Shown here: positions 1 to 13,470 of the stretch, in pieces | Layout: each line of letters begins with the position of its first letter | Position numbering within the stretch: the first letter of the stretch is position 1 | The notes under the pieces: model-generated | Database searches by the model: none | What the model was told of the DNA's origin: nothing | Seen by the model: only the letters and a program-made list of their open reading frames with translations | Made by a program: the position numbers and the translations under genes | NCBI GenBank assembly: GCA_034440375.1 | Contig: JAWXBZ010000221.1 | Coordinates: 1-13,470, forward strand | DNA from: Candidatus Eiseniibacteriota bacterium | GTDB lineage: Bacteria > Eisenbacteria > RBG-16-71-46 > JABDJR01 > JAWXBZ01 | Length of the DNA stretch: 13,470 nt | Direction of reading: 5' to 3'

Positions 1-1
1 C

Positions 2-256
2 ATCGGGTTTTCCGAGAAGATCACAAGGATGGGTGGCCTGGCATCGCTGGAAATCGATTACGCGGACCATGCCGCGGAGATGGCGCGGGCGGCCCGCGCG
101 ATGGCCGGGTCTACAAGCCGCCGGGTCGGCGGACCAATTCGTTTCCCACGCAGTTTTCGCTGGGTGGTGAATACGGGCACGGCGCGAACCCTGGGTATCA
201 GTATCCCGGGCGAGATACTTTCCGCCGCCACCGTGTCGGGGGGCGCGGCGCGATGA
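2..256 (+). CDS. Partial (5'-truncated by window) ABC-transporter-type substrate-binding/sensor partner protein, ABC_sub_bind-like C-terminus
   Basis: The frame is open from base 2 (IGFSEKITRMGGLASLEIDY...). The ending 'GGLASLEIDY...FRWVVNTGTARTLGISIPGEILSAA' resembles the 'G.L.s...d.....iN.k.A..lGi.ip..ll..A' C-terminus of ABC_sub_bind proteins. The stop overlaps the next start (ATGA, 253-256). Confidence 0.7.
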   Translation: MGFSEKITRMGGLASLEIDYADHAAEMARAARAMAGSTSRRVGGPIRFPRSFRWVVNTGTARTLGISIPGEILSAATVSGGAAR

Positions 257-2211
257 ATTTTTCGAAAGGAACTGTCCCGACCCGGAGATACGGATCGCCC
301 GGCTTTCGAATCATCCTGATCGTGTCGAACATCCTCCTCGGCCTTCTTTTCATGGGTACGCTGGCAACGGTGATCGGCATTCCCGTCCGCAGCTCGCTCA
401 TGGACACGCTCGTGCGCCGGGGCGCATCGTACGCCGCTGATCTGGCCGGCCGTGGCCGGCTGGCCCTGGCGGTCGGCGACACCCTCCGGCTGGCCACCGA
501 CGCGCGCGCACTGCTCCAGGACGAGGAAATCGAGCGGATTATCTATCGTGGCGCCGACGGGGCGATCATGCTTCGAATCGAGGGGCGGGGCTCCCGCCAT
601 GCGCAGCTCCCCGGCACTGAGTCGATGGCCTCATCGGCCCGGATCAAGTTGACGGCCAGTTCAGATGGCGATCTCTTTTTGCACGAAGCGGGTGCTGACG
701 AATTTCGCGGCAGCCGACTCGGCTCGGTCGAAGTCGTCATGAACACGCACCGAATCGTGATCGGTCTTGTCCGAACGACCATGCTTGTCATGGTGCTTCT
801 CGTTTCAGGTCTCATCCTCCTGGTCCGCGCCGCAATGCGCCGATTTGTCGATCCGGTCATCCGCCTGGCCGAGGCCGCCCAGCAGGTGAGAAACGGTGTG
901 CTTGACATCCGAGTGGCCGAAACGGCGCCGGCCGAACTCGGACAGCTCGAAATGGCCTTCAACCGGATGGTCGAATCGCTCACCGAACAGGAACAGTCGC
1001 TGCGAGCCAAGAATGACGAGTTGGAGGATTCACTCCGGCAGACGGAGTCGCTCGTCGAGGAGCTGAAACAGACCCAGGACGCCATGGTCCGTTCCGAGAA
1101 GCTTCGAGCCATCGGCGAGATGGCCTCCGGCGTGGCACACGGATTCAACAACGTGCTGGCGGCGATCACCGGCCGCACTCAGCTCATGGAGCTGAAACTC
1201 CAGAAGGGTCAGCTCGATGAGGAATACCTGAGGCGCGGTCTGGACATCGTCCGGCAGGCGGCTTCCGACGGGGCCCGCACGGTGCAGCGGCTGCAGCAAT
1301 ACACCCGTGGAGCACTGCAGAAGGAACTCGTGGGCGTCGATCTCGAAAAGTTGACGCGGCAGGCCATCGATATGGCCCGTCCGCGCTGGAGCGTCTCGGA
1401 TCTGGGGCGGATCGGCACAATCGAGGTCCGGACATCATTCCATTGCGGTGGGCTCGTAGCGGCCGACGAGAGCGACCTGCGCGAGGTGATCCTCAATCTG
1501 TTGTATAACGCCGCGGACGCCATGCCGGGCGGTGGCACGCTGACCCTGGCCACCGAGCCCCGGGGGGAACGGACAGCATTGACCATCACGGACAGCGGCG
1601 TTGGGATGGTGCCCGAGGTCATGCGCCGTGTCTTCGATCCATTTTTCAGCACCAAGGGGGTCAAGGGAAACGGCCTGGGCCTGTCAATCGTATCGGGCAT
1701 CGTCAAGCGATTCGGTGGCGAAGTGCATGTCACCTCCGAGCCGGGCAAGGGGAGCCGGTTCACGGTATTGCTTCGTCCGTGGGAGGAGCGATCCGCCATA
1801 CCGACTGCCCCGGCAACCGATCGTGCCCCGAAAGAGGCCTCACGCGCGGTTGTCGCCTGCCTGATTGCCGACGACAACACGACGGCGCTGGAAAACCTGC
1901 GTGAAATCCTCGAGTCACTCGGCCATCGGGTGACAGCCCTCGAGACTGGCCGCGCGGCCGTCGACGCGCTCCGGGACGGCCACTTCGACCTGGTCATCAC
2001 GGACCTCGGGATGCCCGAAGTCAACGGCTGGGATGTGGCCAGTGCGGCGCGCCTGGCCAACGGTTCGCCCCCGGTTGTCCTTTGTACCGGCTGGGGGGAT
2101 ACCCTCGACCCGTCCGATTTCGACTCTCGCGGCGTCTGGCGATCGCTGACAAAGCCCTACACCGTGAGCCAGATCGAACGTATTCTCGAGGGGCTTCCCG
2201 CCGCGAGTTGA
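253..2211 (+). CDS. Membrane-bound hybrid sensor histidine kinase (TM-periplasmic-TM-HAMP-HisKA-HATPase-REC)
   Basis: Two hydrophobic segments; HAMP (PVIRLAEAAQQVRNG...ELGQLEMAFNRMVESL); H-box EMASGVAHGFNNVL; N-box NLLYNAADAM; G1 DSGVGM; F-box FDPFFSTK; G2 GNGLGL; receiver domain with IADDN, ITDLGMP, LCTGW and TKPY. Confidence 0.95.
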   Translation: MNFSKGTVPTRRYGSPGFRIILIVSNILLGLLFMGTLATVIGIPVRSSLMDTLVRRGASYAADLAGRGRLALAVGDTLRLATDARALLQDEEIERIIYRGADGAIMLRIEGRGSRHAQLPGTESMASSARIKLTASSDGDLFLHEAGADEFRGSRLGSVEVVMNTHRIVIGLVRTTMLVMVLLVSGLILLVRAAMRRFVDPVIRLAEAAQQVRNGVLDIRVAETAPAELGQLEMAFNRMVESLTEQEQSLRAKNDELEDSLRQTESLVEELKQTQDAMVRSEKLRAIGEMASGVAHGFNNVLAAITGRTQLMELKLQKGQLDEEYLRRGLDIVRQAASDGARTVQRLQQYTRGALQKELVGVDLEKLTRQAIDMARPRWSVSDLGRIGTIEVRTSFHCGGLVAADESDLREVILNLLYNAADAMPGGGTLTLATEPRGERTALTITDSGVGMVPEVMRRVFDPFFSTKGVKGNGLGLSIVSGIVKRFGGEVHVTSEPGKGSRFTVLLRPWEERSAIPTAPATDRAPKEASRAVVACLIADDNTTALENLREILESLGHRVTALETGRAAVDALRDGHFDLVITDLGMPEVNGWDVASAARLANGSPPVVLCTGWGDTLDPSDFDSRGVWRSLTKPYTVSQIERILEGLPAAS

Positions 2212-2277
2212 GGCGGCCTCCACGGCCACCTGAAATGCCTTGCGACCGAACCCGGCCCCGGCGCGTATGCTCCTGCC

Positions 2278-3387
2278 ATGAAGCTGGTTCGGATTCTGTG
2301 GCTCCTGCTGGCTACGTCCGCGCCGCTCATGATGGCCTCCGGCCCGTCATGCGCGGTGGCGCCGGCTGATTCGATTGTCACGCCAGATTGTGTGCGTTTC
2401 GAATCCCGCCTCGACTCCCTTCGGCAGGCCCTGCGGATTCCGGGACTGGCCCTGGCGATCGTCCGCGACACCACGATCCTGTCGGCCCGCGGCTTTGGAC
2501 TCGCGGACGTGGAAGGAAAGCGTCCGGTGACCGCCGATACGCCGTTCAACATTGCCTCCGTGACCAAGCCGATGTCGGCGATCGTGGCACTCCGGCTCGT
2601 GGAGCTCGGGCGGCTCGATCTCGATCGCGAACTCATGACCTACACCGGGTTCGAGGAACTCTGCCGGGACACGCGCGACGAGGGAGGACTGTTCTTCAAG
2701 GATTTCGAGTGCGATCAGCATCCGATGACATTGCGCCACGTCCTGTCGATGTCGGTCAATGGCACACCCGGCACGAGATTCTTCTATAACCCGGTCATCT
2801 ACTCGTGGGCCTCGCGTCCGATGATGGAAGTGACCACCGAGCCGTTCTCGTCGCTGATGTCCCGGTACGTCTTCGAGCCGGCCGGCATGACCCGCTCGGC
2901 CCGCATCCACCGGCAACTGCCGCTTCGTGAGGATCTGGCCCGCGACCTGGCGCTCCCCTACCACCTGGACGATTCAAGTCGTGTCGTGCGCTCCGAACCG
3001 CCATCTCCCCAGGGCGATGGCGCGGCCGGAGGCGTTATTGCCAGCGCCATCGATGTGGCCCGCTTCGACATTGCGCTGACACAGGGGCGCCTGATCACCG
3101 CCGCCTCGCGCAAAATGATGTGGATGCCGGGAAAATCACCTGCTGGCGCCACACTCCCCTACGGTCTTGGCTGGTTCGTCGAGACGGTCAACGGCGAACC
3201 GGTCGTCTGGCACACCGGACTCTGGGAGGGCGCCTGGTCGGCGATCTACCTGCGGCTGCCGAACCGCCGCCTTTCCTTGATCCTGCTGGCCAACAGCGAC
3301 GGTCTTCGCTGGGACAACGCGCTGGACGAAGCCGCCATCGTCCGATCGCCCTTTGCCAGGATCTTCCTCGAGGAGGCCATTCGATGA
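2278..3387 (+). CDS. Secreted serine hydrolase, beta-lactamase class C/penicillin-binding-protein-like family
   Basis: Signal peptide MKLVRILWLLLATSA; 'IPGLALAIV...GFGLAD...PVTADTPFNIASVTK' (SxxK); 'PGTRFFYN' (catalytic Tyr region); 'YGLGW...VWHTG' (HTG triad); 'LILLAN'. Confidence 0.93.
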   Translation: MKLVRILWLLLATSAPLMMASGPSCAVAPADSIVTPDCVRFESRLDSLRQALRIPGLALAIVRDTTILSARGFGLADVEGKRPVTADTPFNIASVTKPMSAIVALRLVELGRLDLDRELMTYTGFEELCRDTRDEGGLFFKDFECDQHPMTLRHVLSMSVNGTPGTRFFYNPVIYSWASRPMMEVTTEPFSSLMSRYVFEPAGMTRSARIHRQLPLREDLARDLALPYHLDDSSRVVRSEPPSPQGDGAAGGVIASAIDVARFDIALTQGRLITAASRKMMWMPGKSPAGATLPYGLGWFVETVNGEPVVWHTGLWEGAWSAIYLRLPNRRLSLILLANSDGLRWDNALDEAAIVRSPFARIFLEEAIR

Positions 3388-3421
3388 GGCGCAAAGGTGA
3401 CATGGCAGGCCCGCCGGGTCG

Positions 3422-4705
3422 TCAGCGCACCAGGAGCAACTTCCTGGCCATTCCCGCCCCGTCGGCAACACCGGCGCCGTACTCGATCCGGCAAAAGTAG
3501 AGACCGCTGGCGGCTGAGCCCACGTTCCAGGTGATGGCGTGGTGGCCGGTTGGCTGTACGCCGTCGACCAGCACGTCAACTTCCCGGCCGGCCACGTCGT
3601 AGATGGCCAACCGGACCCGCCCCTCCCGTGACACCGTGTAGCGAATGTCCGTGGCGCGGCCGAAGGGGTTCGGAAAGCCTCCCTCAAGCACGACGGCCGG
3701 CGCAGAGTTCGGCGATTCATTTGCGACGGCGGAGGTGGCGTTCGGATCGTACAGACAGCCAGACGATGCGAACGACGTCTGCCAGGTGACGATCAGCGAG
3801 GTGAAATCGGTTGACACCACCGTGCCGGAATCGCGCATCGCGGCGATCGGCGCGATCAGTGTGTCCTCGATCGAGGCCAAGCCGCCGGGTGCCACGAGAA
3901 CTGACGGCCGGATGGCATGGGACGTCGTCAGCATGCAGCTGGGTGACACTTGACCGGTTCGATACCGATCGACGAGGTCCACGAGGCCGACCACCGTTCC
4001 CAGGTACTGCCCGATTGCGGCGATGTTGCCGGCCGGATCGTGCTCAAAGTAGTGATCCCGATCGCGCGGATGCCAGACACCCGAAACCCGGGGATCGTTG
4101 ACGTGATTCGGCGTGCCACTCCCCATGAGGATGTCGCCGCGCCAGAACGCCCACGGGTAGCGCTCGCCGGCCACCGGCACCCGAAAACGATCCCACTCCG
4201 AGAACTGCGGCAGGCTGGGATCCCAGATGTGTCCGCCGATCACCGTTGTCCCGCCAACGCCGAGTGAATCCAGGAGATGAGCCACGTCGGTGTAGTTGTA
4301 ACCGCCATTCTCGTGCGAATGGGCGTCGATTACGGCGTCCAGATCCTCCTTGACGTATCGGAGGAAATTCTTGTTGTTGGTCGTCGCCATGAGCGCCGCG
4401 TCCTCGTACAAGAGCGCGGCCCGGAGGATCTTCCAATCCGGTTGCAGGGTCCAGGTCACGCTGTAGTCACGGGCAAGTTCGGCCATCTCGATGAGACGGC
4501 TTCGGTACTGGAGGTAGCTGTTGCGATTCTGAATGGAGCCGAGCGTGCCGCCCGGGGTGTTGTCTTCAATGTGAGTGAAGAGAACGGTGTGCACCGGCGG
4601 CGGAGTGCCGGCCACCACGGGCAGTGAGGCCAGAACGAAGAGGATCGCGAATCCAGGAGCCAGGTAACGGGCCAGCCGGGTCATCGAGCGAGGTGGGCCG
4701 GACAT
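3422..4705 (-). CDS. Secreted protein with an uncharacterised His/Asp-rich N-terminal domain and a C-terminal T9SS type-A/FlgD Ig-like sorting domain
   Basis: Signal peptide (RLARYLAPGFAILFVLASLPVVA); GGGAGGG SD about 6 nt upstream of the ATG; C-terminus 'FPNPFGRATDIRYTV...VRLAIYDVAGREV...W...ASGLYFCRI...ARKLLLVR' carries the PNP, GxY and terminal K-hydrophobic motifs of Por-secretion CTDs. Confidence 0.85.
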   Translation of the reverse strand: MSGPPRSMTRLARYLAPGFAILFVLASLPVVAGTPPPVHTVLFTHIEDNTPGGTLGSIQNRNSYLQYRSRLIEMAELARDYSVTWTLQPDWKILRAALLYEDAALMATTNNKNFLRYVKEDLDAVIDAHSHENGGYNYTDVAHLLDSLGVGGTTVIGGHIWDPSLPQFSEWDRFRVPVAGERYPWAFWRGDILMGSGTPNHVNDPRVSGVWHPRDRDHYFEHDPAGNIAAIGQYLGTVVGLVDLVDRYRTGQVSPSCMLTTSHAIRPSVLVAPGGLASIEDTLIAPIAAMRDSGTVVSTDFTSLIVTWQTSFASSGCLYDPNATSAVANESPNSAPAVVLEGGFPNPFGRATDIRYTVSREGRVRLAIYDVAGREVDVLVDGVQPTGHHAITWNVGSAASGLYFCRIEYGAGVADGAGMARKLLLVR

Positions 4706-4813
4706 GACATTCCCTCCCGGTTCAATCGTTGCACGGGTTCACAGGGGCTTGGACCGCCCCGGGGTGCGCACGTTACAGGAAGGGTTGAACGCGCCGCGCC
4801 GGTCGGCGCTCCC

Positions 4814-5749
4814 TCAGGGCACGAGGTTCTTGATCCGGCTCCAGGTGCTCGGCGAGATGTTGACGATCCGGTTGTCGCGCCGGAACTCAAGATCGACGAT
4901 CTTGTCGCCGGGATTGGGCAGCAGGAAGCCCGCGTTCAGCTCAACCATCGTCACCGGATCGAAGACATGCACCTGGGTCGTGACGCCGTCGGCGACGTAC
5001 AGGTTGCCATCGATGGGACTGATATCAACCCCGTGCGGGCGGTCCCAGCCGGTGCCCATGTAAATGCCGTTCAGCACGAGGGCGGGGCTGTAGCGATACA
5101 TGACGTTGGTTCTCATGGCGGTGACGACAATGTTGCCGCCGGGAAGGAAGGCGATGTCATTGGCCTGCGAGCCGGCCGGCAGGAACCACTGGTTGACGAG
5201 GGTGCCGCCAAAAGTAATCTCGCTGACGGCGCCGAGATTGAACTGGCAAATGTAGAGATTGCCGTTCGGGCCGATGGCCATGTCGGCCGGATCGGGGACC
5301 GAATACAGAATCGACACGAGCAAGCCCGTGGTGGCGTCATACTCACGGACGTCCCCGGTAGTGAACGAGCCGATGTAGACATTACCGTTCGGCCCATACA
5401 ATCCGGTCCACTGCCAACCACCGGTCGTGGAATAGGTTTTGATGTAGGCGCCTGAGGTGGCATCGTATTCGTCAACGCCCCCGCCGAACGACCCGACCAG
5501 ATAGCGGCCGTTCAAAAGTCCGAAATGAATCCCGAGCTCCCCACTGCCAAGCACCGCGGTGGAATGAGTGCCAATCAGGGCGCCGGTATTGCCAACGTAG
5601 GCACGCACCACGTTCGAGGCGTCGCTGGTCACGAATAGATCGCCGACGCCGCCGGCGGCATGGGCCGGCGCGGACACCAACACCATCGCCAGAAGGGCGG
5701 CGGGCAAGAGGGTCACGAAGGGTGAAATCACGCGTTCACGAGGGGTCAT
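4814..5749 (-). CDS. Secreted beta-propeller (NHL/Vgb-like repeat) protein with C-terminal TWxxIK tail
   Basis: Start moved to ATG 5749, which has a perfect AGGAGG SD (5756-5761) 6 nt upstream. Signal peptide ends APAHA. Repeats of about 40 aa such as 'GLYGPNGNVYIGSFTTGDVREYD', 'MAIGPNGNLYICQ' and 'VDISPIDGNLYVAD'. Ends STWSRIKNLVP. Confidence 0.85.
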   Translation of the reverse strand: MTPRERVISPFVTLLPAALLAMVLVSAPAHAAGGVGDLFVTSDASNVVRAYVGNTGALIGTHSTAVLGSGELGIHFGLLNGRYLVGSFGGGVDEYDATSGAYIKTYSTTGGWQWTGLYGPNGNVYIGSFTTGDVREYDATTGLLVSILYSVPDPADMAIGPNGNLYICQFNLGAVSEITFGGTLVNQWFLPAGSQANDIAFLPGGNIVVTAMRTNVMYRYSPALVLNGIYMGTGWDRPHGVDISPIDGNLYVADGVTTQVHVFDPVTMVELNAGFLLPNPGDKIVDLEFRRDNRIVNISPSTWSRIKNLVP

Positions 5750-6070
5750 GAGCGTCCTCCTGGGATGTTTGTTCGGGCGGGGGCAACGCCCGATCCCGCG
5801 GCCGGGACCGCGAGAATGGGCGGGGACGATCAAGGATACCAGACACGGTGGCCCTCAGGACCAAAATGGTTGCCGCCGCCGGGGCTGTTCAGAGCCCCGC
5901 CGTGATAACCTGTTGCAGGTCTCGGGAGACTAGTTTCTGGGGTCGGACCAGAAATCCGTGGCGCCCCGGTCAATCCTGTGTCTCTCATCTTCATCGGGGG
6001 GTGTTCGATGCTGCTTGTTACTCGCCATACATTTCGCTCCCGCACCAGCACCTTCGCAACGAGCCCTTCC

Positions 6071-6820
6071 ATGATTCGCCTTCTGCGCTCGACTGTCCTT
6101 TCGCTGGGTTTTTTCGCGATTGCATGGCCGCTCGCACCCGGGGCTGACCTCGCGCAGGCCGAAGTCAACTTCGTGGGTCTCCAATCCTGCTATACGATTG
6201 CCGGGCTTCGGCTCGACTGGTCGTCGGATCTTGGTCCGGATTACGTGCTTAACTACCCTGCCGCGCCAAGCTGCCTGAACATTGCCGGCGTCAACGAGTC
6301 GCTTGTCCTCAATCGATTCTTCTACACGGGACAGAGCTGCACCTCCACGTCCAATGTTCAGATTTCTCCCGCGGGTCAATACTCCGGAAGTCCAGTCGCC
6401 GTGATCGACTATCACCAGGTCGTCGACCACCGCACGGGTGACATCTACGGCCTGGGGGCGTCGGGAGCATGGCGGGTGAGCCCGCAGTTCGCGGGGCTTA
6501 CGGGTTCGACGACCATTTACTGGCGAATCGACGTCGAGGTGGCCGCCAATGATGCCCAATGGCCGCTCCGGATCATGCAATCGAACCACGGTGTCATCTT
6601 CACGACCACGACTCCAGGCGGCTACACTGTCATGGGCTCTTCGCCCTACTCTGACATGACCTTCCTGTGGGACTCGACTACGTTCGTGAGTTCCATAGCT
6701 GCGGGATACAGTGAGAGCCAGGGTCGTCTGACGTTTTCCTTCGATACGACCGAGCTTCCGACGCCCGTTATTGGTACCACCTGGGGCCGTCTGAAGACTC
6801 TTTATGGGACGGCACCCTGA
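6071..6820 (+). CDS. Secreted hypothetical protein, beta-rich, with C-terminal TWGxLK tail
   Basis: Signal peptide MIRLLRSTVLSLGFFAIAWPLAPGADLAQA from ATG 6071; an alternative start at ATG 6008 follows GGGGGGTG. Ser/Thr/aromatic-rich mature region. Ends PTPVIGTTWGRLKTLYGTAP. Confidence 0.75.
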   Translation: MIRLLRSTVLSLGFFAIAWPLAPGADLAQAEVNFVGLQSCYTIAGLRLDWSSDLGPDYVLNYPAAPSCLNIAGVNESLVLNRFFYTGQSCTSTSNVQISPAGQYSGSPVAVIDYHQVVDHRTGDIYGLGASGAWRVSPQFAGLTGSTTIYWRIDVEVAANDAQWPLRIMQSNHGVIFTTTTPGGYTVMGSSPYSDMTFLWDSTTFVSSIAAGYSESQGRLTFSFDTTELPTPVIGTTWGRLKTLYGTAP

Positions 6821-6848
6821 CGGCTTCCTAACCCGACGCCGCTCAAAC

Positions 6849-7702
6849 TCATCGCTTCAGCGCCGAGGTCCAGTTCAGCTCGAGGACGAGCGATGGAGGC
6901 GTCGATGCGCCGGTGGGGATCGATCCGAGGAAGCGTTGAAAGTCGGCGGAGGCCGTGACTGTCACGGCGTCCGGACGCCTCTTGGAAAGCACGCGCGGAG
7001 TGCCTGCGCTGAATGTCGGGGAGGCTTTCACCTCGGCGACCAGCGCCGTTCCATCCAGCCCAAGCAGGAGCATCTCCGTGCCGTCTCTCGACCAGAAGCC
7101 GGCAAATGCGCCCGTGGTCGAAACCTGATATTTGCTCCCGGGCGTCGGAAAGGACTGAGCCCTTCCTAAGTCAGCGGGCGCGTCATCGTCGGGGAGTTCG
7201 TGAGATCTCCGGGTGCCGGGCCAGGCGTCCCCACTCGCGCCAGGCCGAAATCCATGAGCTTGGAGCCGGACCGTGTCAGCATCACGTTTCCGGGCTTCAA
7301 GTCGCGGTGCACGATCCCCGCGCGGTGAGCCTTGTCCAGGGCGTCGGCGAGCTCCGCACCGAGCTTCAGCACGAGCTCGGTTGGCAGGGGTCCTTTGGCG
7401 AGTCGGTCGGCGAGGGTTTCGCCCTCGATCATCTCCATGACCAGGTAGTCAGTATCCCCTTCGCGTCCGACGTCATGGAGTACGCAGATGTGCGGGTGGT
7501 TGAGGCTCGAGATCGTTCGGGCTTCACGCTCGAAGCGGGTCCGCAGATCCGGGCTTGATGACAAGTGCTGGGGGAGCACTTTTATGGCCACGTCGCGCCC
7601 GAGTCGGGTGTAGCGTGCGCGGTACACCTCGCCCATTCCACCGGCGCCGACGGGCGACACGATTTCGTAAGGGCCGAGGCGGGTGCCGCTGGTGAGTGTC
7701 AC
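6849..7702 (-). pseudogene. Internally deleted Hanks-type Ser/Thr kinase with C-terminal TolB/PD40-like propeller remnant
   Basis: 7702-7166 encodes the kinase N-terminal part (GAGGMGEVY, VAIK, HRDLKPGN, DFG) and stops at TAG in the activation segment (PLT*EG), before any APE motif. From 7160, a different frame reads AQSFPTPGSKYQVSTTG...WSRDGTE...GTPRVL...RFL...LVLELNWTSALKR*, which resembles the last blades of kinase-TolB proteins. Confidence 0.85.
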
Positions 7703-7841
7703 AGCCGGGTAATTTGTCTCACGAGGGCGGTATCTCCGACGTCAAGTTTCAGCTTCGTCGTGCAGGTTACCACTCTTCCTGGTGCGGAGCGGCATGATGG
7801 GTTGATTGTGCTCCCCGGAAAGCCCGGCCACGAGTGACCCC

Positions 7842-9227
7842 CTACGGCACCTTCTTCGGAAAGAACCCCGCCGTCCGCTCCGTGGCCAGCCGGATCGCCT
7901 CATCGAGCGTCGTCAGGCCGTGGTAGCAGCGCTCCACTTCTTCTCCCACCTGCCCTTCGATATCGGGCCAGTTTTCCATCACGGGAACGGCGCGGATATG
8001 GGGAATGACATCCAGGAAGACCTGGCTGTGGGCGGGCTTGCTGGTTGGGTCAAGGAAGGCCGGGGAGTTGGCGATGGCCTTGAGTGATGGGACGGTCCGG
8101 CCGCTGGCGGCCAGAATTGACTGCCCCTCGGGGGTGCTGGCGTACTCGATGAAGGTCCAGGCGGCGGCCTTGTTCCGGCTCGACTTCGGCATGAAGAAGG
8201 CATCCGTGTGCAGAATGCCGGCCGGCACCTTGCCCCGCGGCAGGGGTGCCACGTCCCAGTCAAACGACTTGATGGTGCGGTAGATCGGCACGCCGCGACG
8301 GCTGTCGAAGTACATCCCCATCGTGCCGCGCAGGAAGCGGCTCACGCTCGGCTCGGCCTTTTCGGCGAACATGTCGGGCACGATCCGGTGCTTGCGCGAC
8401 AGGTCGATGAACCATTCGATGGCCTCGCGCGTCGCCGGGGCGTTCAGGGTCAGCCGGGTCGGGGCTTCGGGATTGTCGAAAATCTCCCCGCCGTTCTGCC
8501 AGATGAACGGCGCCACCCGGAAAAAGACGGCCTCCGTGCCCAGGCCGTACTGGTCGCTGGCCCCATCGCCGTTGGTGTCTTTGGTGAGCTTCTTGGCCGT
8601 CTGGATGAACTGGTCCCAGGTCCAGTCATCCTTCGGGTACGGAATGCCGGCCTCATCGAACAGGCTCTTGTTGTAATAGACGACGAGACTCGAAATGTTC
8701 TGCGGGATGGCCAGCAATTTTCCCTGCCAGTAGTACGACTGGAGCGCCTCCGGATAAAAATCCCCGGTGCGAACCAGCTTGCTGGCGGCCACGTAGTCGT
8801 CGAGCGGCTCGAACAGCCCTTTGGCAGCGTAGTTGGCGTAGCGGCGGTAGTTGAGCAGAAAAACATCCGCCGGCGTTCCGGCCGCGAAGTCGATGGCCAA
8901 CCGCTGAAGATAGGACAGCTGGTTCGGCGTGTACACAAGTTCAACCTTGATCTCCGGGTGCTTTTGCCCGAAAGCCGTGATCAGGGAGTCGTAGGCCTTC
9001 TTCTCCACCGGGTCGCCCCAGATCATGAAGGAGATGCTGCCGGTCTTTGGGGCGGCCAGCGCGGGATTGGCGCCCAGCGGCGTCATGATGCCGGGCAATG
9101 CGCAGAACGATGGCGCGACGGCGAGGAGCCCCACCGCCAGTCGGAACAGTCGGGTCGGCCAGGGGAAAATTTTGGTCAATTTAAAAATCCTCCGGGAGTC
9201 CTTTTCAGGATGGATCGGCCGATTCAA
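7842..9227 (-). CDS. Carbohydrate ABC transporter (CUT1) extracellular solute-binding protein
   Basis: SBP family 1 motifs: 'F...HPEIKVEL', 'AAGTPADVF', 'GLFEPLDDYV', 'YYNKSLFDEAGIPYPKDDWTWDQF', 'FLRGTMGM', 'FDWDVAPLP', 'AAWTFIEY'. N-terminal signal-like stretch; exact start uncertain. Confidence 0.93.
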   Translation of the reverse strand: MNRPIHPEKDSRRIFKLTKIFPWPTRLFRLAVGLLAVAPSFCALPGIMTPLGANPALAAPKTGSISFMIWGDPVEKKAYDSLITAFGQKHPEIKVELVYTPNQLSYLQRLAIDFAAGTPADVFLLNYRRYANYAAKGLFEPLDDYVAASKLVRTGDFYPEALQSYYWQGKLLAIPQNISSLVVYYNKSLFDEAGIPYPKDDWTWDQFIQTAKKLTKDTNGDGASDQYGLGTEAVFFRVAPFIWQNGGEIFDNPEAPTRLTLNAPATREAIEWFIDLSRKHRIVPDMFAEKAEPSVSRFLRGTMGMYFDSRRGVPIYRTIKSFDWDVAPLPRGKVPAGILHTDAFFMPKSSRNKAAAWTFIEYASTPEGQSILAASGRTVPSLKAIANSPAFLDPTSKPAHSQVFLDVIPHIRAVPVMENWPDIEGQVGEEVERCYHGLTTLDEAIRLATERTAGFFPKKVP

Positions 9228-10083
9228 CCCCGGCCGGTCGTTTCAGGTTCAGGGGCTTGAGCAGCATCTCGTCGGGCCAGAAGTAGCGGTGGGCCATCAG
9301 GAACGCCCCGATGACCGGAACCAGGATGACCACCACGCCGGCCATGATCAGCGGGGCGTCGGTCACATCCATCTGCTGCAGCGAGGAAAGGCCCACCGGC
9401 AGCGTGTAGTTGCCCTGGGATCTCAGGTAGAGCAGCGGCGAAATCAGATCGCTCCAGTAGAAACTGAATGCCAGGACAGCCACGGTGACAATCGTGGGAC
9501 GCGCCAGCGGCATGGCCAGCGCGGACCAGACCCGCCAGTGGCCGGCCCCATCCAGCCGGGCCGCCTCGAAAGTCTCCCGCGGGATGCGGCGAAATGTCCA
9601 GTAGAACAGGAGCACGTAGAACGGATTGGTACCGCCGATGGCCGGCACGATGAGGGCACCGAGGGTGTTCATGAGTCCCAGATGCCGGAAGAGGATGAAA
9701 CGGGTCAGCCAGAGCGCGGTAATCGGCACCAGCATCAGGAAGACGGTACCGAGCACAAACCGTCGCCGCCGCCGGGCGGTCAGATTGGCCATGGCGTAGC
9801 CCGCCCAAGAGGCCGTCACGATCGTCAGCGGCACGGCGATGCCGACGACAAGGAGTGAATTGCCGGCCTGCCGCGCCATCGGCACCAGATCGAAGAGCTG
9901 GCGATAGTTGTCAAAAGCCGGGCTCGTCGGCCACCATGGAATGTTGAGGGATGGCGGCAATCCGGGTGTGCGCAGGGAGAGCACCAACACCCACCAGGCG
10001 GGCAGGAGAAACGCCACGGCCAGCAGGAGCGGCAACGCGTGGCCGACAAGTTTCGGCCCGAACCGGTGGCGCAACTCAGGCAT
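9205..10083 (-). CDS. Carbohydrate ABC transporter permease (MalG/UgpE-like)
   Basis: Multiple TM segments; EAA loop 'IPRETFEAARLDGAGHWRVWSALAMPL'; 'W.D...PLLYL....YTLPVGL'. Likely start is ATG 10083, overlapping the upstream stop (ATGCCTGA). Confidence 0.93.
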   Translation of the reverse strand: MPELRHRFGPKLVGHALPLLLAVAFLLPAWWVLVLSLRTPGLPPSLNIPWWPTSPAFDNYRQLFDLVPMARQAGNSLLVVGIAVPLTIVTASWAGYAMANLTARRRRRFVLGTVFLMLVPITALWLTRFILFRHLGLMNTLGALIVPAIGGTNPFYVLLFYWTFRRIPRETFEAARLDGAGHWRVWSALAMPLARPTIVTVAVLAFSFYWSDLISPLLYLRSQGNYTLPVGLSSLQQMDVTDAPLIMAGVVVILVPVIGAFLMAHRYFWPDEMLLKPLNLKRPAGVESADPS

Positions 10084-10978
10084 CCTCGCCGTACCCCCAG
10101 CCACGGGCCAGACCGGCAACCAGGACGAGGAGCAAGGCCACCGCAGCGAGCAGAAGCAACATGATGGCGGCGGCGTGGCCGAAGCGCAGCCCCTCGAACG
10201 CCTCCTGGTACATCAAGAGAGGCATGAAGAGCGTGGCGTAGTAAGGCCCGCCGCCGGTCATCAAATAAGCCGGCGTGAAGGTGCTCTGGGCGCTCAGAAT
10301 GATGTCGCGCAGCGTCAGGAGCAGGAGCCACGGTGCCAGCATCGGCAGCGTGATATGACGGAACTTGTGCCAGCGGTTGGCACCATCGAGCGAGGCCGAT
10401 TGGTAGTAGTCGTCCGGAATGCCCTGCAGTCCGGTCAGCAGCACGACCAGCCCCTCGCCAATCTGGAAGAGCGACATGATGACGATGGCGAAGAGCGCCG
10501 TCTGACCTTCCGCGAGCCAGGCCGGCTGGGCGAGGCCGAGGGCTTTCAGGGAGATGTTCAGCGGTCCGTACAGCGGATTGAAGATCCAGAGCCAGATGAG
10601 CGCGTAGGCCACGTCCGGTACGACCGTCGGCAGGAAGACCGACATCCGGTAGAAGCCGATCCCCCGTCGGCGTTGCCGCAGGAGGAGGGCCAGCCCGAGT
10701 GCGCCGAGGAGGCGAAGCGGTACGGCCAGCAGGACGAAGACGGCCGAGTTCCGCGCGGCCGTCCAGAAAAGATGATTCTGGAAGACCTCCCCAAAGGTGC
10801 CGAACCCGCGCCAGACAGGGGCCGAAAGGCCGTCCCAGGAGGTGAAGGCGAAGGCCAGTGCGGTAAGGGCGGGCAGGAGGACCAGAAGGGTCATGCCGAC
10901 CACACCCGGCGCCATCATGGCAGCCAGGGAGACGCTGTCCCGTGTTCGGTATCCGGCGATCCTCGATTTGTGGGACAT
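10076..10978 (-). CDS. Carbohydrate ABC transporter permease (MalF/UgpA-like)
   Basis: Multiple TM segments; 'FYRMSVFLPTVVP', 'W.WIFNPLYGPLN'; EAA-type loop 'LQGIPDDYYQSASLDGANRWHKFRHITLPML'; 'MTGGGP'. Confidence 0.93.
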   Translation of the reverse strand: MSHKSRIAGYRTRDSVSLAAMMAPGVVGMTLLVLLPALTALAFAFTSWDGLSAPVWRGFGTFGEVFQNHLFWTAARNSAVFVLLAVPLRLLGALGLALLLRQRRRGIGFYRMSVFLPTVVPDVAYALIWLWIFNPLYGPLNISLKALGLAQPAWLAEGQTALFAIVIMSLFQIGEGLVVLLTGLQGIPDDYYQSASLDGANRWHKFRHITLPMLAPWLLLLTLRDIILSAQSTFTPAYLMTGGGPYYATLFMPLLMYQEAFEGLRFGHAAAIMLLLLAAVALLLVLVAGLARGWGYGEDA

Positions 10979-11038
10979 GGCCTAATCCTATACTGGTTCG
11001 GGGATGACCGAGCTTCGGGCGGAGGTTAAGATCCTCCA

Positions 11039-12574
11039 ATGACCGGCTACGACAACATCCTGAATCTTCTCATTCTCTATGACACGGCCCGGGGGTTCCT
11101 GCCGCTCCGGGAGGCACCGGACGTCATCCATCACGGCATCCTGTCCTTTTCGGGGGCCACCGGCACCCGCCGCGTGGAGTACCTGGCTCACGACGGGGCG
11201 GGTCGGTTCACGGCCGTCCCGGCCCGTGGCGCCCGCCCGGCCAGGCCGGTCACCTGTCAGGTGGCCACGGAAACGTTGGCTCTCTTTCGACAGGATCCGG
11301 GCCCGCTGAAGATGGCAGCCCTCGGCCCGGGCGAGCCGGCGCTGGAGGAGGCGGCCGAGCGGCTCAGCCTCACGCTGATCATTCCGGTGGCCGACGAGTA
11401 CGCGCTTCATGGCCTCATCGGCATCGGCGACAAGCTTTTCGGCGATATTTACACCGATACCGAACTCTCATTGATGCACGAGATCGCTTCGCTCCTGGCC
11501 GCCGCCCTCTATCGTCAGATCCGTCCCACCGCCGAGCGACTGGCGCCCGGCACCGGCGCGTCGCTCGACGCGATGCGTCGCGAGCACCCGCCGCTGGCTC
11601 GAATAGCCGGCCGAAGTTCCGCCATCCGGGTCATCATGGAGGAGATTCTCACGCTGGCCGATTTCGATCTCCCGGTCCTCATCACCGGCGAAACCGGCAC
11701 GGGCAAGGAGCTGGTGGCGCGGGCACTCCACGAGATCGGCCCCCGCGCGGCGGGTCCGTTCGAGGCGGTTAATTGCGCCGCGATACCGCGGGAACTGGTG
11801 TCCAGCCACCTGTTCGGCCACGAGAAGGGGGCGTTCACCGGTGCCATCGCCGAGGCGAAGGGCGCCTTCGAACGGGCCGGGGAGGGAACGCTGTTCCTTG
11901 ACGAAATCGGCGACATGCCGATGGAAGTCCAGGCCAGCCTGCTCCGCGTCCTCCAGGAAAGACGCTTTTCGCGCGTGGGCGGCGAACGGTCGATGCCGGC
12001 CAGAGCCCGCATACTCAGCGCCACGAACCAGAATCTCGAGGAGGCCGTCGCCGCCGGTACCTTTCGGGCCGACCTCTTCTATCGGATTCAGATGTACTCG
12101 CTTCGGCTCCCCCCCCTTCGCGAGCGGCGGGAGGACATTCCGCTGCTCGTCGAGCACATCCTCGGGGATGTCCGCCGCGTCAGGGGGAGCGCACCCCGCG
12201 CCGGAGTCGCGTTTCTCGATGCGCTGGCCGGACAGCGGCTCCGGGGCAACGTGCGCGAACTCGAGGGGCTGGTCCTCTCGGCCATCGTGCGAGCGGTCGG
12301 CGGCGACACGCTCGAGGCCGCCCACCTGATGCCGGAGCTATCCCGACCCGGGACATCGGGCCAGATCGCCACGGCGGCGACCGCCGGCACCTCCCAGGCG
12401 GGAGAGACGCCGCCTCCAGGTGTCATCCCCTACGAGGAAATGGAACGTGAATATGTCCGCTCCGTCCTCCGGGTCACTGAAGGAAACAAGAAACAGGCGG
12501 CAGCACTCATGGGCATCCCCCGGACAACCCTCAACGACCGGATGAAAAAACTGGGCCTCGACGCCACCTCCTGA
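11039..12574 (+). CDS. Sigma54-dependent transcriptional activator (bEBP, NtrC/Fis family) with a non-REC, GAF-like N-terminal sensor region
   Basis: Walker A GETGTGKE; NCAAIP; intact GAFTGA (11828-11845); Walker B TLFLDEIG; 'FRADLFYR'; 'GNVRELE'; C-terminal Fis-type HTH 'GNKKQAAALMGIPRTTLNDRMKKLG'. No receiver Asp motifs in the N-terminus. Confidence 0.95.
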   Translation: MTGYDNILNLLILYDTARGFLPLREAPDVIHHGILSFSGATGTRRVEYLAHDGAGRFTAVPARGARPARPVTCQVATETLALFRQDPGPLKMAALGPGEPALEEAAERLSLTLIIPVADEYALHGLIGIGDKLFGDIYTDTELSLMHEIASLLAAALYRQIRPTAERLAPGTGASLDAMRREHPPLARIAGRSSAIRVIMEEILTLADFDLPVLITGETGTGKELVARALHEIGPRAAGPFEAVNCAAIPRELVSSHLFGHEKGAFTGAIAEAKGAFERAGEGTLFLDEIGDMPMEVQASLLRVLQERRFSRVGGERSMPARARILSATNQNLEEAVAAGTFRADLFYRIQMYSLRLPPLRERREDIPLLVEHILGDVRRVRGSAPRAGVAFLDALAGQRLRGNVRELEGLVLSAIVRAVGGDTLEAAHLMPELSRPGTSGQIATAATAGTSQAGETPPPGVIPYEEMEREYVRSVLRVTEGNKKQAAALMGIPRTTLNDRMKKLGLDATS

Positions 12575-12579
12575 CGGCC

Positions 12580-12633
12580 GGCCGTCCCGATTCGACACGG
12601 TTCTCCGACTATGGCGGTGGGCCGTCCTGATTC
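12580..12633 (+). promoter_or_regulatory. Candidate upstream activator sequences (tandem 14-bp direct repeat) for the sigma54 promoter
   Basis: GGCCGTCCCGATTC (12580-12593) and GGCCGTCCTGATTC (12620-12633) are 13/14 identical and start 40 bp apart, about 110-165 bp upstream of the predicted start site. Confidence 0.55.
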
Positions 12634-12671
12634 AAGGGGCAGCAAAATCCACGCAGAAATCCTATAATTTG

Positions 12672-12691
12672 TGTAATTTCAATTGATTACA
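12672..12691. promoter_or_regulatory. AT-rich inverted repeat between UAS and promoter (candidate bending-protein/IHF-like or repressor site)
   Basis: TGTAAT-TTCAATTG-ATTACA has perfect 6-bp arms and lies in the most AT-rich patch of the window. It contains an IHF-like AATCAA on the minus strand but does not match the full IHF consensus. Confidence 0.45.
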
Positions 12692-12716
12692 GGCATAATG
12701 TCAGATGCAGCACTTT

Positions 12717-12731
12717 TGGCATCGCGCTTGC
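12717..12731 (+). promoter_or_regulatory. Sigma54 (RpoN) -24/-12 promoter
   Basis: TGGCATCGCGCTTGC matches TGGCAC-N5-TTGC with one mismatch and has exact GG-N10-GC spacing (GG 12718-19, GC 12730-31). It lies directly downstream of a bEBP gene and upstream of a co-oriented CDS. Confidence 0.88.
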
Positions 12732-12786
12732 GAAAGGGATCCTTCGTCCGCCAATTGATCTCAATCGTTTGCTTCAGGGGGCTCCG

Positions 12787-13404
12787 GTGAATTCCAGGAT
12801 CGGTCGTGAATGGATGATGGTCGCGGCCACCGTCGCGTTGGTAACTGTCTCAATCGTTGCCTCCCGCCCGGCCGTGGCCGGCGGTTGCCAGGACTCCGGC
12901 GCTCAATCGATTGCCTTCGAGTCACTGGAGCACTATCGGAACGGCCCCTACCGGGCCGGTACCGTCCTGATGGCGAATAGCGCAAACGATTGGAACGCCG
13001 CCACCGAAAAGCTGGCCATCGAAGAGGCGCTGAGCCTCTACCCGGTTGATACCCCAAATGTTAAGTGGGGCGAGCAGTCGGTCATCATGGTCGCCATGGG
13101 CGAGTGCCCAAGCCTTGGTTACAACGTCATCATTGAGAGTGTCTGGAAGGAAACCGACCGAATCGTCGTCGGCGTCCGTTATGTCCACCCAGGCGAGGGC
13201 TCGCAGCTTTCGGCCTTGTCATCTCCCTATCACATGATCTGCATCGATGCCGTCGGCATCGACAAGATCGAAATCTGCGAGACCAGCGCGGCCGCCGCCC
13301 GCATCGAGCGCCGCCTCTCCCCGCCCGGCAATTTCAATCCCGAAAATTCGGCCAGCACCTCCACGACCTGGAGCGATCTGAAGTCCCGCATCGCAACCCA
13401 GTAG
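12787..13404 (+). CDS. Secreted PrcB C-terminal-domain-like protein with C-terminal TWxxLK tail
   Basis: Likely GTG start at 12787 with AGGGGG SD (12776-12781). Signal peptide ends RPAVA. 'VIMVAMGECPSLGYNVIIESV...IVVGVRYVHPG...LSALSSPYHMICI' fits the PrcB_C pattern (G..pt.GY.i.i..v...V....P......t.Py..v.i). Ends STSTTWSDLKSRIATQ. Confidence 0.8.
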   Translation: MNSRIGREWMMVAATVALVTVSIVASRPAVAGGCQDSGAQSIAFESLEHYRNGPYRAGTVLMANSANDWNAATEKLAIEEALSLYPVDTPNVKWGEQSVIMVAMGECPSLGYNVIIESVWKETDRIVVGVRYVHPGEGSQLSALSSPYHMICIDAVGIDKIEICETSAAAARIERRLSPPGNFNPENSASTSTTWSDLKSRIATQ

Positions 13405-13470
13405 CTCCGGCTCCAACCTTCTGCGGCGGTCCCGGTCACCCCAAGGTTCGTGTTCCGGAGATCTTGGATA

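Follow-up and report, generated by a model that had tools for sequence, protein, structure and literature searches.

A short C-terminal Trp-Lys tail on exported proteins of several uncultured phyla, a candidate signal for a type IX-like secretion route

Why should three unrelated secreted proteins, encoded close together, finish in the same few residues? The question is raised by a 13,470-nucleotide stretch of Candidatus Eiseniibacteriota bacterium (assembly GCA_034440375.1, contig JAWXBZ010000221.1, positions 1 to 13,470), here called the window. A sequence-only reading had noticed the tag [ST]TW[SG]x[IL]K just before the stop codons of these proteins and had proposed that it serves protein sorting. 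The three tails are translated exactly where that reading placed them (Table 1), and the bodies before them are indeed unrelated, namely an NHL-type propeller, a PrcB_C protein and a third for which Pfam has no family (best E 0.05). Our results demonstrated that the tail is a real, widespread and uncatalogued C-terminal tag. It is very probably an envelope sorting tag of some kind, and we give about even odds (roughly 0.5) to the narrower reading that it may be a minimal C-terminal signal for an outer-membrane route akin to that of type IX secretion systems (T9SS).

The window's own genome (3.96 Mb, 93.7% complete; G000 below) encodes about 70 tail proteins. A tail profile returned 73 members above a score of 12, 71 above 15 and 70 above 17, and the 71 above 15 belong to 51 body families by BLAST. 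Both of the genome-wide checks that the sequence-only reading had called for gave enrichment. In 22,828 six-frame open reading frames (ORFs), 62 of the 71 matches to the strict motif [ST]W[GSA]x[ILVM]K lie 9-19 residues before the stop, against 0.68 expected from the rate elsewhere. A signal peptide was called, by a crude heuristic and not by SignalP, in 52 of 68 tail proteins (16 remained uncalled) as compared with 617 of 2,765 long ORFs (22%; odds ratio 13.8, p 3e-18), and no Tat motif was found in the tail proteins. The motif core is present as first described, but the signal is longer than that core, its fuller consensus being P-V-[PAGS]-V-x-P-x-T-W-[SG]-x-[IVL]-K-x-[LR] and the protein continuing for 7-17 residues beyond the Trp. 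In the alignment (A1), which includes the members found by the profile, neither the Trp nor the Lys varies. The tail has no transmembrane helix, as had been said of it, but the amphipathic character also attributed to it is weakly supported (hydrophobic moment 1.15 vs 1.02 shuffled). Synonymous sites are 0.43 identical from tail to tail, near saturation as compared with the 0.33-0.39 given by codon usage; the tail is therefore conserved as protein, and an origin as a DNA repeat is ruled out. The tail proteins are small, with a median of 253 residues vs 659 for bodies that carry a T9SS type A C-terminal domain (CTD) in the same genome. In Pfam, the domains recognised in their bodies are, among others, LTD, NHL, CHRD, DUF4394 and beta-helix ones, and 43 of the 60 bodies scanned had no match at E 0.01. 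The largest tail family has 14 Cys-rich members of about 230 residues with no Pfam match (G000 C11:22830-25412, C50, C101, C146, C209, C252).

The tail is not confined to this genome. In the same phylum the profile matched 120 of 121 genomes (E 1 or better), with 2 to at least 73 matches per matching genome. A pattern scan of the genome collection gave at least 123 distinct matches, at least 78 of them terminal tails; 45 of the 123 listed were set aside before a second alignment (A2) as internal, too far from the stop or apparently due to chance. Among the matches listed, tails occur in Poribacteria, Eisenbacteria, Krumholzibacteria, Fermentibacteria, Latescibacterota, one Acidobacteriota and one Pseudomonadota, and the occurrence of such ends in Poribacteria and FCB-associated phyla, as given in the sequence-only reading, was borne out by scan and profile. 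A panel of 38 tail genomes had 3-104 profile matches each and 12 controls had 0-1; the panel was picked from tail matches, which makes tail presence there circular, five of its genomes duplicate those of the window's phylum, and its genomes are kin. In Bacteroidota, one of 101 genomes gave one weak match. Fifty-eight G000 tails matched no NCBIfam family and 102 tails gave two single Pfam matches at E 0.16-0.23, both with short queries of little power. The profile had no match among PDB sequences at E 10, the Atlas features gave no usable match with structure rows below the bar, and a literature search, which did not extend to subscription papers and supplements, turned up nothing on the tail.

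The tail is a module outside the fold, according to the AlphaFold2 model of the window propeller. The fold is complete by about residue 258 (pLDDT >90) and is followed by a linker and a free helix of 7 residues (pLDDT ~58), which does not agree with the tail being an ordinary structural element of the propeller. Among the 150 best propeller representatives, 11 have the tail at their end, five close relatives run on into other domains, and more distant relatives carry, by regular expression, PEP-CTERM-like ends (9) or T9SS-like ends (3). Such swapping could be assessed for the propeller alone, the other two window proteins having one near-identical relative each. Within G000, homologous bodies carry either the tail or a CTD after a common xGV/xAV junction (two clear pairs of three examined), and the two were never found in one protein, with none among 71 tail proteins set against the 97 best of 118 TIGR04183 matches. 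The behaviour of a sorting tag is well supported, because the tail is terminal, present in many copies, joined to unrelated bodies with signal peptides, free as a helix and exchanged, at one and the same junction, for other C-terminal modules. The sequence-only reading, which had seen in it a homologous tail on non-homologous exported proteins, agrees with these features.

One of the exchanges might point to a different machine. At this junction P0131, a propeller homologue 47% identical to that of the window, carries a transmembrane tail of the exosortase type, and the tail might accordingly be a shortened PEP-CTERM-like helix which lies on the membrane surface, keeps the protein periplasmic and is cut by an exosortase or by another membrane- or tail-specific protease. 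The net charge of +1.9 after the Trp fits this view, and we also count for it the LTD, DUF4394, CHRD and NHL domains, which we take to be common on PEP-CTERM proteins. We consider it unlikely, given that an exosortase was found in 14 of the 38 tail genomes and in none of eight named Poribacteria, that the single XrtH-like enzyme of G000 has a conventional IPTL-type target, and that a transmembrane helix is missing and amphipathicity is weak. The enzyme and its IPTL-CTERM-like protein are encoded at C112:33990-34697 and C15:7328-7873, and the scan found no PEP-CTERM proteins in G000.

The connection with T9SS comes mainly from Poribacteria, where the tail is also found fused in front of a CTD. 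In one genome (G121, of which 2.02 of 5.06 Mb, or 40%, was read), 5 of 29 CTD proteins contain the whole tail, with the W position exactly 11 residues before the NYPNP of the CTD (shuffle p<0.004 each). Leu occupies that position in four of the five, as compared with Trp in all 80 terminal tails; 29 terminal matches to a Leu/Phe/Tyr regular expression in G121 included none that was tail-like. Two further records place the tail about 30 residues before the CTD. Across 41 Poribacteria genomes there are 30 tail-CTD composites of the Trp form and 292 of the Leu/Phe form, the latter largely tandem paralogues; one form or the other occurs in 38 of the 41, and a reversed control pattern gave 0. Since the fused tail stands directly before the CTD, it sits in the linker slot where PorU cuts ordinary T9SS cargo, as described in the accessible parts of PMC11969387 and PMC4804311. 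In G000, [AGSP][VI][EDP] is enriched both in tails (29/68 vs 11.5 shuffled) and in CTD linkers (42/94 vs 27.0), [TS][AGS]V is enriched in the linkers (29/94 vs 10.4), and eight pre-CTD domains begin with P-V-[SA]-V-x-L-x-x-F in the same register as the tail. At published T9SS cleavage sites the +1 residue tends to be small, and in Prevotella Ile is favoured at +2 (PMC11969387). As a separate observation, most other CTDs of Poribacteria (G121, e.g. L210:1026, L221:15206, L258:12738) have a conserved two-helix-like segment in the slot of the tail.

The same fusions could be explained if the tail served for docking or processing rather than for export, being bound by a scaffold on the surface, a sortase complex or a large CTD cargo, with the tail-only proteins as passengers or docking after export. 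A signal for export only would be needless before a complete CTD, and it is kept there in the 38 Poribacteria genomes. Tail proteins are also small, 4 of 64 exceeding 450 residues vs 59 of 86 CTD bodies, and the 14-member Cys-rich family shares its body with the N-terminal domains of three large CTD proteins. On the other hand, most tails that precede a CTD have another residue in place of the Trp, as if the CTD took over part of its job, and in AlphaFold2 models the fused tail is unstructured outside the sandwich and does not pack on the CTD in cis (pLDDT <50). In G000, nine of 70 tail genes have a CTD gene no more than 1 kb away, and no common scaffold emerged when the 40% of G121 was compared with G000. 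That comparison (1,700 ORFs from G121, 737 shared; 111 signal-peptide-like pairs, with Pfam run on 62 selected envelope proteins) brought out no dedicated unknown partner. We regard docking as the less probable explanation, somewhat improbable in itself and still ahead of the exosortase one.

A T9SS-like route for the tail would need the machine. SprA is encoded in G000, along with one PorU-PorV pair, another PorU-like gene and nine barrels of the PorV family; GldK was not found in this 93.7% complete genome, and GldL, M and N were not searched. SprA was detected in 33 of the 38 tail genomes and in none of eight non-Bacteroidota controls, the matches in Poribacteria being weak (E 1e-4 to 1e-8) and lying in open frames 1,560-2,310 residues long. 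PorU-like C25 proteins occur in all 25 named-record tail genomes of the panel, and seven tail genomes searched have 6-17 PorV-family barrels each. PorP/SprF gave at most a weak match to a PorV paralogue. The suggestion that the tail is used alongside a T9SS-like system has thus gained the tail-CTD fusion and the co-occurrence with SprA as sequence evidence; that the system reads the tail keeps the even odds stated above. Near SprA, in 20 loci and G000, stand genes which we take to be LptF/G-like, NusA-region and peptidase-like; none of them is shared with Poribacteria.

Two components of these genomes might compete for the role of reader. The second PorU paralogue (the type on G000 C11) might be a dedicated tail sortase: its sequences, 20 rows from the window's phylum and its neighbours, make up a clade with support 99, and in G000 it has four tail genes no farther than about 17 kb away. 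The clade includes no Poribacteria sequence, though, and the paralogue is present in G078, which has no tail match, while G134, with 23 tail matches, has one PorU-like gene of the ordinary type; such a role is very unlikely. The type II secretion system (T2SS) is used by GlyGly-CTERM proteins, and the tail might similarly address a T2SS or type IV pilus secretin. Of 32 tail genomes, 31 gave secretin matches, which exceeded the GspD cut-off in nine genomes, but G134 has none despite its tails, SprA, PorU and PorV2, the only match in G000 lies in a pilMNOPQ-like operon and is of the pilus type, and the CTD fusions would be left unexplained, which makes this the most improbable of the alternatives. 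Exosortase, second PorU and secretin were all rejected as universal readers, each having gone without a match in some tail genomes. The most discriminating of the tail genomes is G134, whose single 6-Mb chromosome has tails, SprA, a PorV2-like barrel and one PorU and gave no match to any of these three.

Among PorV-family barrels, the preferred candidate for a T9SS-like reader is a PorV2-like one. In a 50-row FastTree of barrels from five genomes, each genome contributes to a PorV2-like clade (support 97) and likewise to the canonical group of PorU-linked PorV (support 88); a first tree (23 rows, IQ-TREE) had no starred branch. PorV2 was the best match of the three clade members tested. For the G000 barrel at C63:5603-6655 the best NCBIfam match is NF052325, PorV2, a 'putative type IX sorting system protein', at 149.7 bits and so below the 325-bit cut-off. 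Several clade members have no adjoining large cargo gene, unlike most paralogues; one copy, from Poribacteria, comes after PorU. At E 1e-18 or better, NF052325 was matched in 35 of the 38 tail genomes, in 10 of 10 genomes of the window's phylum (G078, without a tail match, included), in two of four Bacteroidota and in none of eight other controls. No cargo of PorV2 turned up in the literature search. Complex prediction of the barrel with the tail scored 0.00 in two runs without folded controls and counts neither way. That this barrel reads the tail is a hypothesis, possible though doubtful.

Other barrels of the family deserve mention. On G000 contigs C75, C30, C150, C258, C241, C232 and C188, each PorV-family barrel adjoins one large protein with a divergent CTD, which suggests dedicated shuttle-cargo pairs; two of these barrels have what we take to be extra C-terminal domains, OmpA-like and TPR-like. 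An 800-residue protein (G000 C196:10957-13359, L400; L217:10625-13168) has a signal peptide and joins a PorV-like barrel at the N terminus to peptidase domains of the S49 (SppA) type; in G000 it is encoded close to PorU-PorV, in G121 close to a PorV paralogue, and it is possibly an outer-membrane peptidase for released signals. It was rejected as a tail-specific partner, one query having matched 19 of the 38 tail genomes and the protein being common in Myxococcota; matches were found in 25 of 60 genomes, with look-alikes mainly in Myxococcota.

Taken together, a T9SS-like mechanism could run as follows. A small tail protein would cross the inner membrane by Sec, as its heuristically called signal peptide suggests. 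The first half of the tail may resemble a T9SS cleavage-site segment, a small residue or Pro followed by Val or Ile, and the second half, a short free helix with the invariant Trp and Lys, would bind, instead of the 7-stranded CTD, to a PorV-family shuttle, preferably the PorV2-like barrel, within the SprA translocon. The protein would then be released or attached to the surface, probably after a cut by a PorU-type sortase. In Flavobacterium johnsoniae, PorV loops hold the CTD inside SprA, and in type A CTDs a Lys, their one conserved residue on the surface, contacts PorV, according to the available text of PMC10994853. Lys is invariant in the tail too, and we set this beside the Lys of the CTD in favour of a T9SS-like route. 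In its fullest form, which is tentative, the proposal is that several uncultured phyla, Poribacteria included, use a T9SS signal of a new class. This would be a 15-residue Trp-Lys helix that an orphan PorV2-type barrel recognises and that sends dozens to more than 100 small proteins per genome through a SprA translocon without the Gld motor; it could also serve as a processing segment before ordinary CTDs.

Several points weigh against a T9SS-like route. The tail lacks a beta-sandwich and its last two strands, where the known signal sits, and the shortest known CTDs have 40-55 residues (PMC4804311 and PMC11969387, in the parts available). The Leu/Phe composites, largely tandem paralogues as they are, do not count as independent events, and the tail-CTD fusion was not found in G000. 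The linker motif [TS][AGS]V is not enriched in G000 tails (6/68, p 0.11). At the presumed +1 site of G000 tails, Pro is the most frequent residue (36/64). The NF052325 matches fall below the cut-off and may include other PorV paralogues, and orthology was checked in five genomes by FastTree. G150 and G151 have 6 and 3 tail matches and no SprA or PorV2 match, possibly as a result of misbinning. Bacteroidota with a full T9SS, and with PorV2 in two of four, are without the tail; the co-occurrence of SprA and tail may come from shared ancestry; and no tail genes were found in the 1.5-kb flanks of the PorU/PorV loci examined.

The features of the window are listed in Table 1. The propeller gene likely starts at the ATG at 5746, with an AGGAGG site upstream. 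The ORF of the protein without a known family runs from 5978, and its likely start is residue 32, the same Met at which its sole close homologue begins; the homologue keeps the tail, as does the one close homologue of the PrcB_C protein. A secreted serine hydrolase of the beta-lactamase family (PF00144; 2278-3387, +) scores far under every class C beta-lactamase cut-off. We take the frame at 7166-7702 (-) to be a 178-residue N-terminal piece of a Ser/Thr kinase, apparently truncated, and the genes at 7842-10978 (-), 11039-12574 (+) and 253-2211 (+) to be those of a sugar ABC transporter, a sigma-54 activator and a hybrid sensor kinase; these last three have no apparent tie to the tail.

Table 1. 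Tail proteins, tails and a comparison protein in the window
Feature	Coordinates	Strand	Basis
Secreted protein with an ordinary T9SS type A CTD; comparison class, without tail	3422..4705	-	TIGR04183, 30.4 bits (cut-off 23)
NHL-like secreted beta-propeller, tail at its end	4814..5746	-	ORF, Pfam NHL, upstream sequence, AlphaFold2 model
Tail 1: W core, W + 7 residues	4814..4864	-	Translation; AlphaFold2 model
Secreted protein without known family, tail at its end	6071..6820	+	ORF; Atlas start; close homologue
Tail 2	6758..6820	+	Translation
Secreted PrcB_C-domain protein, tail at its end	12769..13404	+	PF14343 above cut-off
Tail 3: first half atypical, W..K core intact	13351..13404	+	Translation

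With about 70 proteins in G000 and 80 in 40% of one Poribacteria chromosome bearing an uncatalogued tag, several uncultured phyla have a large share of their exported proteins unannotated. If a T9SS-like machine reads the tail, cargo recognition by T9SS would be wider than the beta-sandwich CTD, the system would work outside Bacteroidota without the known motor ring, PorV2 would gain a function, and a 15-residue tag could be used to display proteins on cell surfaces. The conserved barrel, together with the fusion in fixed register, offers testable pairs of tail and reader.

As compared with known systems, the tail shares with the T9SS type A CTD (TIGR04183, PF18962) its C-terminal place on Sec-exported proteins, its swapping after a similar junction, an invariant Lys, the presence of SprA, PorU and PorV in the same genomes, and its fusion to such CTDs in Poribacteria. 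It differs in being a predicted helix of about 15 residues, too short for three strands, without the beta-sandwich, motifs B, D and E or any match to the two models, in its small cargo, in not being found in the Bacteroidota sampled apart from the weak match above, and in a genome where GldK was not found; even the short CTDs of Prevotella intermedia have 40-55 residues, as given in the accessible text of PMC11969387. The tripartite signals PEP-CTERM, IPTL-CTERM, GlyGly-CTERM and MYXO-CTERM, when taken by the criteria in the available part of bioRxiv 10.1101/2023.06.07.544157, are likewise terminal, multi-copy and marked by signature residues on unrelated bodies with signal peptides, and a signal of their kind replaces the tail in one homologue. 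The tail has neither their transmembrane helix nor their Arg cluster, with charged positions among the 7-17 residues after its Trp, and it does not co-occur with exosortase. It stands outside both the CTD and the tripartite families, yet it works most plausibly like a CTD.

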